In this document: positions 1-3,000 of the stretch, one piece after another
Position numbering within the stretch: the stretch's first letter is position 1
Layout: each line of letters opens with the position of its first letter
Virus record (IMG/VR): IMGVR_UViG_3300029590_000219
Source: a virus
Taxonomy: Duplodnaviria > Heunggongvirae > Uroviricota > Caudoviricetes
Strand: one strand, 5' to 3'
Length of the DNA: 4,102 bases
Position numbers: made by a program

Positions 1-3000
1 CCTCCTTCCCCCACCGGAATGCCCTGCCCGCCAAAGCTGCTGCCGCGCGCTGGCTGCAGCCCGGCAAGCTGGACCACCAGCTTTTTGCCTGTTGGCGCGA
101 TAATGCAGCCACGTAACGCTGAACTGGTTAGTTCCATGATATTGTCAAACAGCAGGTCTGCACATCCGGCTTTCAGTGCTTCGATGCCTTCGTCTATTTG
201 TTCCTGTTTGAGTGAAGGGCGGGGAAGGTTCTGGGGCTGGAATAGCCGTCCGGCCCAACGACCGGTACGTGACGCCCCGCAGAACTGTAGCGTACCGCGT
301 AAGCGCCCGTCGTGGCTTACGCCTTTCATCAGTGCCTTGTATTTACTGGTGCTGGTAGTACTGGCCTGCAGGCGGATAGCCAGCAGTTCTTTCACGGCAG
401 ATGGTAAATCGGGGTCGGCAATACGACGTTCCAGAGTACTGCGTTGCATGTCTGGTAGCTCCACACCGTAGGATTCAACAATGTGCTTAATCAACGCGTC
501 TCGTTGTGTGGCTGCCTGCACTTCGCCATCAGTCATTTCCTGTGTACGCTTTGCCAGGCGCTTTTGTTCCTGGTCTACCGCGTCGATCGCAGCGCGTGCG
601 AGTTCCACGTCCATGCAGACGCCCCGGTCATTGATCTGCTGATCACGATGCCAGAGCGCCAGTTCTGTCCCCTGATAATTCCACTTCGGCAGACGTTTAC
701 AGACTTCGCGCATTGCCTCGATATCCAGTCCGGCGTAAGCAACAAAGCGCCGCCATTCTTCCGGGTGGGTTTTGCTGGTGGCCCGGCGCAGTTTGCTGTT
801 TTTCGGGCGTGGCTTACAGAACAGCTGGATCAGCGCTTTACCTTCTTTGTCCTTCGCTTTGTCTTGCGGGACGCCTAGTACTTCGCAGAGTTCCCCCAGA
901 GACCCCGGGAGACCGTGCGCCAGCGCCTGCACCATTGTGTCGCGCCAACGTTCGACTGGCGGTGCCAGGCGCGGCATTGCATAACGCAGGACGGTGCGGT
1001 CGAAGTGAGAGTTATGAAAATAAAGCAGGGTTTCAGGGGCTGCGATTGCTTCGTATAAGCCGTGTGGAATACCACCACCGGCAGTGATATCCCACACGTT
1101 TACTGGCCCGTCGTTGATAGCCCATGCGAACAGCATCACTTCAACGCCTTCGGCATACGCATGGGTGCCATTATTGATAGATATTTCACAGAAAGTTTCC
1201 AGGTCGCCCCATAGTATATTGGACATTGTATTTACTCCGAAGAATTAGCTACATGGATACGAAAGATATTATCTCACTTGTTGGAGTCATAATTTCAGCC
1301 ATAACTGCACCAGTCGGTGTTTATAAGTTATTTAAAGATGCTAGTTGGTTTTTACCGAAAACAACAAAATTCTCGCATATTCTGAAGAATTATCCGGAGC
1401 ATATTGAGCCTTCTGATGTAGAGTTTATGAAGGCAGAAATCAAAAGAGAAGTTAAAAAAAGTATATTAGGTATAAGTAGCCAGAAATTAAGAACGTTAGT
1501 TATTTATGTCAGAACGTATTCTGAATTGAAAATGCCGTTTTGGCAGTGGGGTTATTTAGCACCCCATATTCAGTGTAAATACGATAGATTCTTTATACGC
1601 TACAAAGGTAAATACAAACGATGTCGCTGGTGTTCTAAAGTTGTTTCTATCTTTTATTTGGCTGATGGCTTGATATTTTTCTGTTGGTCGTTAAATTATG
1701 GCGCTGTTTTTATAGGAATGAGCGCTGTTTTAATGCTGCTGTGTATATGGATGGCTTTTATGTTTTGGTTTCTTTTTCCGGGACGAGGCGTTATAAAGAA
1801 GTATAATTCCCAATTATTGAAAATAGATGCAAGTAAGTATCAGGCCAAATGATATTACAGGTCTGATACTTTGCTTTTTTTAAATCAGTGTTTTCAGACA
1901 AAACGAAGTCCTCCGTAAATTAAACGGTGATAAAAAGCCCCTGACTGAGCAGGGGCGAATTGTGGAATTAGTGTGGAAGCTGTGACGGCGGAATATATCT
2001 GCCGATGCGGTCTTCTATGGTCGGCAGAATGCACATGCTGTCGCTGAAGCGGTCATGCAGCTGGTAAACCAGTTTCGAATCCATTTTTTCGAGAGCAGGC
2101 ATTAACTGCGCCCGCCAGATTTCATTGATGCGCCGGAAGTTATGGCAGACGGCGCGGAGATTGTTGATGAACATTTCCTTCTCTGCGTCACTGACTGCTG
2201 TCTGCGCCTTCTGAATGCGTTTCGTGCTGCCGTTCCGGTAGAAGCGTTCCTGAGCAGCGACAGCCTCATCCACAGTCGGATAGCACCCGACGTAAACGCT
2301 TTTCTCTCCGTCCCATGCATAAGCCCTGTACGGATTGTATTTGCTCCGGTGATGGTAAACCATCTTCGGCAGACACTCCCTGTGTGGCGCCAGTATCGTG
2401 GAGGATTGCTGGCGAAGTTTCTTTTCGCACTCGATGAAGTATCGGCGGATCTGGCGGCCTTTTTCGTTGCGCTCCACCATCGCCAGTTCTTTGGCTGTAT
2501 CGAGAGTGAGGTGGTAGTCCTTACAAAGAACATTTTTACGCTTTCCAGTTTTGGAAAACGTTACGATATAATCCTGATTTTCAACGAATTCATAGTCTGC
2601 AATTCGTGATGTAATCCACGCTGCAAACACTTTCCCTACCCCAAGGAATGCGTGCAGATCGCGAGCATTGCAGAGCAGGGTGGTTTCGTTGGCGATAGCG
2701 CCGTTGAAAACGGGGATGAGCTGAGTTGCCATCACAGTTACCTCTAACGGTGAAATTCACCGCCACCACTGAGTTGCAAATCTCATATGGGTGGCGAACT
2801 GACGAGGTTTGCAATACCGGCGTTAGAGGAAACCGGCGCGCCGAAGCGCCCCCGCCAGCCCNNNNNNNNNNNNNNNNNNNNAAGCTTGCGACAATAAAAA
2901 AGACGCTGGCGCGTCTGGTGTCGCCCCTAACAATTCCGGGTTGCAAATCCCGATCTCCATTTGGGAGATTCGGTGAGCATAAACCGGAAGGGGGCGATGA

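Follow-up and report, generated by a model that had tools for sequence, protein, structure and literature searches.

What is the role of a small gene that lies inside a phage replication cluster, is read against every one of its neighbours and differs from them in base composition? The question is raised by ORF199, a gene found between those for a family-A DNA polymerase and an Enc34-type single-stranded-DNA-binding protein (SSB) in 4,102 nucleotides (nt) of DNA from a virus of the class Caudoviricetes (IMG/VR record IMGVR_UViG_3300029590_000219; this whole stretch is referred to here as the window). The original prediction regarded positions 1227–1960 as an AT-rich insert encoding an orphan membrane protein, and as a candidate defence or exclusion gene. 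Comparison with related loci points to a different history, in which ORF199 belongs to a small, divergent protein family and occupies a fixed position where one allele can be swapped for another. As to function, we put forward, tentatively, a role in protecting the lysogen against other phages.

ORF199 begins with an ATG codon and encodes 199 amino acids (aa); a mechanical open reading frame (ORF) of 208 aa can be opened from TTG 1226, and the same 199-aa coding sequence (CDS) is called in RefSeq for a 97%-identical E. coli prophage. It is the only gene on the plus strand of the window, all the remaining genes lying on the minus strand, and its AT-richness is as first reported: GC is 0.345 (GC3 0.33), as against 0.563 for the polymerase gene, 0.513 for the antirepressor gene Ant, 0.488 for DUF2815 (the SSB) and 0.499 for DUF2800. 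Set against 613 windows of 600 nt covering the whole prophage of the 97%-identical E. coli JNEC-KY203 (mean 0.503, sd 0.051), this corresponds to a z-score of −3.1. Comparison with the 68%-identical allele of the E. coli locus L003 gives a dN/dS of ~0.31. Judged by this ratio, ORF199 is a real gene under purifying selection, though relatively free to change, and the ratio together with the conserved length rules out a pseudogene or chance ORF. As a separate observation, only one other prophage region matches ORF199 in AT-richness (GC down to 0.32); it lies at ~15700–16650 of L001, the closest complete relative, overlaps a minus-strand gene for a 272-aa hypothetical protein near SNF2 and IS1, and may be another accessory gene.

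Further clues come from the position of the gene in other genomes. Family members are found on the strand opposite to the replication genes, at a distance of 23–46 nt from the polymerase start and ~15–50 nt from the stop codon of the SSB gene. The loci concerned, in E. coli (L002, L003), Klebsiella aerogenes (L005, L030), Citrobacter (L004) and metagenomic contigs (L010, L026/27, L032), have polymerase N-termini that are 63–99% identical to that of the window. GC in these slot copies is 0.29–0.36 as against 0.54–0.60 for the polymerase gene or flanks, and copies outside the slot, with GC of up to 0.42, are still below their flanks. Because low GC is kept in every slot copy measured, it appears to be a standing property of the gene and no sign of recent arrival.

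The occupant of the slot varies far more than the backbone around it. Between the window and L003 the polymerase is 98.7% and the SSB 99.5% identical but the slot gene only 67.8%; the corresponding values are 97.4, 99.5 and 25.7% for the window and phage vB_EcoM-606R2, and 97.4, 98.4 and 22.7% for the two K. aerogenes loci. In the comparison with L003, dS is 0.57 in ORF199, about six times that of the flanks (0.03–0.10), where dN/dS is 0.02–0.09. As dS in ORF199 is so far above that of the flanks, the alleles predate the backbones that carry them and have been exchanged by recombination. The occupant can also be a different gene altogether. On two backbones with a polymerase 98% and an SSB 100% identical to those of the window, the slot holds unrelated AT-rich genes on the plus strand: one for a soluble 229-aa protein (L036 1716–2405, GC 0.393), the other for an 89-aa protein with two predicted transmembrane (TM) segments (L035 1711–1980, GC 0.396). 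Neither product has a PADLOC or PHROG match, both genes adjoin an Nmad5 gene (frameshifted in L035), and the 229-aa protein of FDAARGOS_144 is unrelated to the ORF199 family.

For E. coli, the slot was surveyed in best-ranked and evenly spaced 60-row samples of the 586 records that match any part of the window. Among the polymerase- and SSB-bearing genomes listed, none has an empty slot, each spanning at least 2793 bp where ~2200 bp is estimated for an empty one. The LH50-c strain of E. coli carries a precise 668-bp deletion equivalent to window positions 1221–1888 (L037 junction 4551–4557), which also removes the polymerase start codon; its RefSeq polymerase is shortened and lacks the N-terminal exonuclease motif, and the prophage is probably replication-defective. 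Additional borders for the slot unit are provided by solo copies spanning 1167–1891 (L006) and 1116–1844 (L011), whilst the vB_EcoM-606R2 backbone diverges from the window over 1236–3082. More distant relatives also bear cargo at this junction. In the temperate aphid-symbiont phage APSE-7, whose polymerase and SSB are 62 and 55% identical to those of the window, the junction (L038 4833–5280) carries on the opposite strand a tRNA-Lys and a gene for a 121-aa tail-anchored coiled-coil membrane protein unrelated to ORF199. In the virulent relative HK578, all that lies between SSB and polymerase is a small ORF on the same strand. Opposite-strand cargo is thus present in the temperate relatives examined and absent from HK578, the sole virulent relative examined.

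On the strength of these comparisons, the polymerase/SSB slot is a fixed position with a swappable allele, and ORF199 is not a core replication gene. The notion of a recent horizontal insert is rejected for ORF199, whose position and low GC are conserved across genera, and an essential core replication gene is rejected also, ORF199 being replaceable and found alone as well. The original prediction had set its own case against that of a conserved core gene of matching composition. The position indeed proves to be conserved, but the composition never matches the flanks and the gene can be replaced on backbones that are 97–100% identical. Nor can ORF199 be seen as a late arrival in a cluster that was contiguous without it, since the same place and orientation are kept in modules whose polymerase is only 63–88% identical to that of the window. 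The DNA that the window has in excess of L003, the closest ORF199-type locus, is 1894–3115, and by this comparison the recent insert in the window is the Ant module and not ORF199. The interval first proposed therefore joins two things: the slot gene, which extends to ~1888–1893, and a stretch from 1894 to 1960 that belongs to the Ant cargo.

ORF199 is not without relatives. A word-indexed search of 5.8 billion proteins identified 13 clusters, from Escherichia, Enterobacter, K. aerogenes and Citrobacter, whose full-length members are all exactly 199 aa and are 49–98% identical; a profile search over all 1.84 billion cluster representatives returned 21 matches only. A family alignment links this clade to proteins of 192–240 aa built on the same plan, including the 209-aa slot protein of 606R2, which belongs to phrog_10579. 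ORF199 itself matches the phrog_10579 profile with an E-value of 5.3e-4 (residues 38–192 on profile positions 21–179 of 182); the same profile matches the family members P0016 (9e-8) and P0022 (1e-9) and the 606R2 protein (7e-107), and in a reciprocal check the ORF199-clade profile recovers phrog_10579-type proteins. ORF199 is thus a distant member of an unannotated family, ~18–26% identical to 606R2-type proteins, and the label of orphan has to be dropped. That no family was recognised at first is borne out: Pfam, NCBIfam and PADLOC scans of ORF199 gave nothing significant, and Pfam was likewise empty on 25 aligned members. A sequence-profile search of the PDB produced only Poz1 (E 0.13), which is noise, and literature searches with the accessions, phrog_10579 and the module found nothing on the ORF199 protein.

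The predicted protein has hydrophobic segments at residues ~5–24, 128–148 and 150–176, in agreement with the description of one N-terminal and two C-terminal segments around a Lys/Arg-rich region. The stretch of ~100 aa between the first two segments contains 22 K+R and nine D+E and the C-terminal tail six K+R. By the positive-inside rule these charges assign both the large loop and the tail to the cytoplasmic side (N-out/C-in), leaving a predicted ~4 residues exposed to the periplasm. An early AlphaFold2 (AF2) model built from 12 close sequences was too poor for use (pLDDT 54), but 25 diverse sequences gave a usable one (pLDDT 81, pTM 0.61). This predicts a poorly placed N-terminal helix (residues 3–29), a cytoplasmic helix bundle (36–105) followed by a beta-hairpin (106–115) bearing an RFFIxY motif, a long two-helix membrane hairpin (120–146 and 151–174, pLDDT above 90) and an amphipathic cytoplasmic helix (178–188). 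Conservation is greatest in the C-terminal tail and the hairpin preceding TM2 and least in the membrane helices and the four-residue periplasmic turn, suggesting that the functional surfaces face the cytoplasm or the inner leaflet. No family member departs from P at position 176, and F113, R125 and N185 are almost as constant. Polar or charged residues of the sort that would line a pore are not conserved in the membrane hairpin: D138 in the second segment is not conserved and the third (152–175) contains no D or E.

How might such a gene be expressed? Between the polymerase start codon and the ORF199 ATG is a 26-nt leader, and just upstream, within the polymerase gene, the block CCATAGTATATT (1209–1220) is identical in six aligned sequences. 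TAGTAT and TATATT, both contained in this block, might serve as −10 hexamers; for the −35 element, 1167–1252 offers no convincing candidate. In solo copies of the ORF199 clade (L006, L011 and L012/L013), which have no polymerase gene, the ATG is still preceded by 60–110 nt from the 5' end of the polymerase coding sequence, in original or diverged form. The retained stretch includes CATAGTAT or CATAGAAT, with CATAGTAT also retained in the P4-satellite copy L009. This polymerase-derived stretch shows the solo copies to be descendants of phage slots, and its retention suggests that the regulatory region of ORF199 lies there. It is this co-inheritance with the gene on which we base the candidate promoter, which would overlap polymerase codons 2–5. 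At the other end of the gene, an 11-bp stem is formed by AGTATCAGGCC (1836–1846) and GGTCTGATACT (1860–1870), with the stop codon (1850–1852) in the loop and a T-run, TTGCTTTTTTT, to follow; a simple terminator scan does not detect this structure, its loop being 13 nt long. Slot copies and solo L006 share the stem, three pairs being maintained through two-sided changes, and it is probably an intrinsic terminator or 3' stabiliser. ORF199 looks like an independent unit that would be read through in antisense by the early operon.

Members of the family are also found well away from the slot. P0016 from Citrobacter (~30% identical) is encoded in a P4-like satellite at a distance of 300 nt from psu, which places it inside the psu–int interval defined as a defence hotspot by Rousset et al. 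2022 (PMC9122126); its neighbours are the PADLOC candidate PDC-M36A, a P4 cII homologue and a restriction-modification system. P0022 adjoins Dsr1 (2227 bits) on a conjugative element. A plasmid of Pantoea ananatis carries P0020; parB is ~600 nt away in each of the two copies, and the L028 copy is 415 nt downstream of an integrase gene. Closer relatives occur as orphans, one setting being the border of a CP4-57-like island and others chromosomal sites in Enterobacter and an Enterobacteriaceae species. The conjugative element with P0022 carries a further item (L008 3562–5450): a thymidylate-synthase homologue beside an aGPT-Pplase3/ADDT gene, with UmuD/UmuC-like genes and Dsr1 nearby. Read from the Pfam names, this may be a thymidine hypermodification pair.

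The reading that we favour, whilst remaining slightly more doubtful than confident of it, is that ORF199 is a single-gene inner-membrane anti-phage factor expressed in the lysogen, with a block on entry as the preferred mode of action. ORF199 would be an accessory 'moron' in the polymerase/SSB slot of the Enc34-type replication module of temperate enterobacterial phages. Because it is opposed to the early operon and has its own leader and terminator, it would probably be transcribed alone, and separately, in the lysogen; in lytic growth antisense read-through would oppose it, as with sieB in lambda and P22. The product would comprise an N-terminal anchor, a cytoplasmic helical domain of ~90 aa ending in the beta-hairpin, a tight membrane hairpin and a conserved basic tail, and would protect the lysogen by blocking an incoming genome at the inner membrane, as P22 SieA does. 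The P4 hotspot, the Dsr1 neighbour, the deep allelic variation and the sieB-like antisense placement all strengthen the idea of defence or exclusion.

Several observations weigh on the other side. Homology to SieA is not established: in hhalign comparisons the A5 alignment scored 24.2 against SieA type A (probability 5.2%) and 26.5 when type B was added (8.8%), above the 16.3–17.4 of reversed controls but far from significant. The SieA profile phrog_7745, which finds P22 SieA at 9e-109 and HS1 SieA at 6.5e-21, gave no match for ORF199, the 606R2 allele, P0016, P0022 or P0024; a Pfam scan is uninformative on this point, P22 SieA itself having no match in the copy used, which lacks PF26849. In PADLOC-DB v2 the sole match of ORF199 is to RTasSLATT, at an E-value of 0.079, with none for the 606R2 allele, P0016, P0022 or P0033. 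Fold searches yielded generic helical hairpins only, nothing specific. A consensus sigma-70 scan found nothing upstream of ORF199, and most loci have no acceptable −35/−10 pair. The presence of family members in defence islands is guilt by association and suits abortive infection at least as well as exclusion, and conservation of the slot across genera could equally reflect a service to the phage itself.

Abortive infection is the alternative that survives best, though we consider it unlikely. ORF199 would then be a single-protein effector whose cytoplasmic domain senses a phage product, such as a replication protein, and whose hairpin then forms oligomers and depolarises the inner membrane, so that the cell dies before the phage has completed its cycle. 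The positional analogue of ORF199, SieB, which is also embedded in antisense, has been described as an abortive-type excluder. The best-conserved regions of ORF199 are cytoplasmic, which suits a cytoplasmic trigger, and the psu–int hotspot and the neighbourhood of Dsr1 are places rich in such systems. The TM proteins of known defence systems are, moreover, believed to be suicide effectors (PMC9122126). Faint SLATT-type matches are seen in the form of RTasSLATT and of DUF4231 (0.024 at best, in two of the 25 members), but they do not approach significance and in part miss the membrane hairpin, the PADLOC match spanning residues 36–90. No sequence relation to SieB or RexB can be found: PF14163 gave no ORF199 match at E ≤ 0.1 where P22 SieB, the positive control, scored 4e-29; hhalign probabilities were 0.1% against each of P22 and lambda SieB and 0.4% against lambda RexB; and there is no RexA-like partner gene. 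Holin families yield a single match, that of the 606R2 allele to phrog_2508 at E 0.37. The membrane hairpin, as described above, has no conserved residues with which to line a pore, and a constitutive pore-former would need tight control, and no partner gene is conserved alongside ORF199.

A function in the phage's own cycle, with ORF199 either anchoring and organising the polymerase/SSB machinery at the membrane or controlling the polymerase in antisense as a lysogeny–lysis insulator, strikes us as decidedly improbable. It would account for the presence of a family member at the same short distance from the polymerase start at every slot locus read, with polymerases only 63–88% identical, and for the fact that the sole clean deletion of the slot destroys the polymerase start, no backbone-bearing E. 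coli genome listed having an empty one. As read from the sequence, an ORF199 transcript would be fully complementary to early-operon RNA between SSB and polymerase, and the candidate promoter extends into the polymerase gene. Against this, near-identical backbones hold the unrelated 229-aa or 89-aa slot genes, the virulent HK578 does without such a gene, and satellites, conjugative elements, plasmids and chromosomes also harbour family members where no polymerase is close by. Purifying selection on the ORF199 protein further argues that the product matters and not the act of transcription alone.

Prophage genes of high AT content and opposite orientation are classic morons, and the roles that they play towards the host vary. 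Some other conversion function—a change to a transporter or receptor, colicin or stress tolerance, or modulation of a Tol/Ton-type complex—might be suggested by the recurrence of TolQ, ExbB and ZorA, which have a similar plan, at the top of a Foldseek search of solved structures, but this is very improbable: those matches are non-significant (E ≥ 1, TM-scores 0.2–0.28), the 25 members include none with a match to MotA_ExbB (PF01618), the acidic residues are missing or not conserved as described above and the enrichment in defence hotspots would be left unexplained.

Returning to the anti-phage reading, a fuller version of it can be framed, which is quite unlikely to hold in every part. ORF199 and phrog_10579 would constitute a new self-sufficient family of inner-membrane anti-phage proteins, possibly a far branch of SieA; a promoter in the first codons of the polymerase gene would express any slot allele in the lysogen, antisense early transcription would silence it on induction, and the cassette would have been exported with its promoter fragment to satellites, conjugative elements, plasmids and chromosomes. 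The family has no characterised member and no entry in PADLOC-DB v2, and a fixed slot, ancient alleles and a possible promoter within the first polymerase codons make for a neat arrangement. As a kind, the membrane gene of a prophage that is small, AT-rich and antisense and probably excludes other phages is well known, with many candidates. If the proposed function is correct, a compact 0.6-kb single-gene membrane family, unrecognised by the libraries searched, would join the protection repertoire of prophages. Its carriers are Stx2b-converting and related E. coli prophages, together with prophages of K. aerogenes and Citrobacter, so that it could shape the range of phages, therapeutic ones included, able to infect these hosts. 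The polymerase/SSB junction of Enc34-type modules would be an accessory-gene hotspot with two sub-slots, useful for cargo mining, and specificity could be mapped with the deep series of alleles that occurs naturally on near-identical backbones. A link to SieA, should there be one, could help with a problem posed in PMC10883804: how SieA types that differ so widely come to exclude the same set of phages.

The features of the window are collected in Table 1. The polymerase gene owes its label to the 'DNA polymerase' annotation in prophages 97–99% identical to the window and to PF00476 on full-length homologues. The second sub-slot, on the minus strand next to the SSB gene, is more variable than the first and holds Ant, BRO-N, HNH or Nmad5 depending on the genome. 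The Ant cargo of the window looks like an immI antirepressor module of the P1/P7 type with its own promoter-like site and a strong terminator on the minus strand, which bears out the terminator named in the original prediction. Within the predicted C4 RNA the window has a run of 20 Ns (2862–2881), at which the 97%-identical prophage L001 reads GCCATAATGCGAACGTGGCA. The 33 nt from 3083 to 3115, by which the Ant cargo is joined to the SSB stop, agree with the junction that follows the 606R2-type allele and not the ORF199-type junction of L003; they stand at the end of a hairpin seen by eye at ~3081–3101. As a 606R2-type junction here accompanies an ORF199-type allele, the window is a mosaic of two slot types.

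Table 1. Positions of genes, putative regulatory elements and comparative borders in the window, with the basis of each assignment
Feature	Position	Strand	Basis
Family-A DNA polymerase, 5' part (N-terminal 408 aa, including the 3'-5' exonuclease region)	1–1226	−	ORF reading; start codon 1224–1226
Upstream region inherited with ORF199; candidate promoter region	1167–1252	+	60 nt of polymerase 5' coding sequence plus 26-nt leader
Replaceable slot unit	1221–1888		Borders by comparison with other loci
ORF199, predicted three-TM inner-membrane protein of a phrog_10579-related family	1253–1852	+	ORF, homologues, profile match, hydropathy
ORF199 3' stem-loop	1836–1881	+	Stem 1836–1846/1860–1870, conserved pairing
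Ant antirepressor module, separate cargo	1894–3115	−	Absent from L003
Ant terminator (predicted)	1937–1956 (stem), then T-run	−	Terminator scan
Ant CDS (AntA domain)	1968–2735	−	Domain scan
C4 antisense RNA (predicted)	2787–2870	−	Rfam, 47.1 bits (gathering score 45)
isrK-like Hfq-binding RNA (predicted)	2896–2969	−	Rfam, 50.9 bits (gathering score 50)
Sub-threshold match to C4 a1/b1 targets	2933–2982	−	Rfam
Promoter-like site of Ant module	2976–3005	−	Promoter scan
DUF2815/Enc34-type SSB, right-hand slot border	3116–3664	−	PF10991, E 2.4e-44
DUF2800 (PD-(D/E)XK nuclease-like), 3' part	3680–4102	−	PF10926, E 3e-28; PDDEXK_1 on full-length homologues

The window is part of a family of temperate E. 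coli phages, examples of which are vB_EcoM-606R2 and an Stx2b-converting prophage integrated beside yfhL. The left-hand operon of these phages runs in the order integrase, SNF2, ..., TIR-like gene, polymerase, slot, SSB and DUF2800; to its right are a LexA-like repressor and a Prim-Pol/VapE-type primase (annotated DUF5906 in L001). In L001 the stx2b A and B subunits are encoded at 31809–33044, downstream of the Q antiterminator and a tRNA-Arg, and their presence in this closest complete relative indicates that an ORF199-type slot gene rides on Shiga-toxin-converting phages. L001 has its own cassette of holin, lysozyme and lysis-protein genes, away from the slot. Directly downstream of the polymerase gene, many members of the prophage family carry a TIR-like gene (PF10137, CAP12-PCTIR_TIR; L001 18265–19026, L002 1265–2026, L027 1831–2589, L030 5093–5854), which may have a role in defence or counter-defence and is absent from L003. 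ORF199 as a partner of the TIR-like gene was considered and rejected, co-occurrence of the two being inconsistent, as the example of L003 illustrates.

How does ORF199 compare with known systems? The stators MotA, TolQ, ExbB and ZorA share its order of segments, namely one TM helix, a cytoplasmic domain, two helices and a cytoplasmic tail. The SieB proteins of lambda and P22 (PF14163) are close to it in setting: sieB encodes a membrane protein of ~190 aa, is AT-rich (GC 0.39), lies in antisense within the early-left operon and, in P22, has its own annotated promoter and a short leader. Unlike those of ORF199, the hydrophobic segments of SieB are N-terminal and are followed by a soluble C-terminal domain. 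A conserved internal in-frame start like that of esc in sieB was looked for in ORF199 by eye only, and none was seen.

In architecture, the nearest counterpart is SieA, for which types A, B and C, a three-segment plan and a conserved cytoplasmic motif, FxRYPxEAxxFNK, have been described (Leavitt et al. 2024, PMC10883804). SieA (164–212 aa) and the ORF199 family (192–240 aa) alike are small inner-membrane proteins of prophages, with (by prediction for ORF199) a TM segment at the N-terminus, then a charged stretch in the cytoplasm, a membrane hairpin and, again in the cytoplasm, a short basic tail that bears the best-conserved motif. The sieA gene is likewise AT-rich (GC 0.337 against 0.471 for P22), and each family comprises deep sequence types, less than 30% identical, at one prophage position; single-gene action is known for SieA and proposed for ORF199. 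The differences are as clear. ORF199 has a cytoplasmic domain about twice as long, with a beta-hairpin, and is found at the polymerase/SSB junction, whereas sieA lies between ejection gene 16 and tailspike gene 9, the type A (P22) and type B (HS1) examples directly following the gene-16 homologue. Of the tail consensus in the ORF199 family, P-x-x-K-x-I-x-x-x-N-x-x-L-L-K-I-D, only P, N and K align with the SieA motif, and then with a two-residue gap; P and N are nine residues apart in the ORF199 family and seven in SieA. In hhalign, which aligns the two families over hairpin and tail, P176 and N185 pair with the P and N of the motif, but its R, Y, E, A and F are absent. We have not filed ORF199 as a member of SieA for these reasons, and a SieA-like action, which it may have, is suggested by architecture and biology only.

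The slot itself is best compared with the defence hotspots of P2 and P4 (PMC9122126). It differs from these in lying inside a replication operon, in accepting one oppositely oriented gene and in being dominated by one divergent family where the P2 and P4 sites have many unrelated systems. It is like them in offering a fixed site with conserved flanks at which alternative, often AT-rich cargo is carried.

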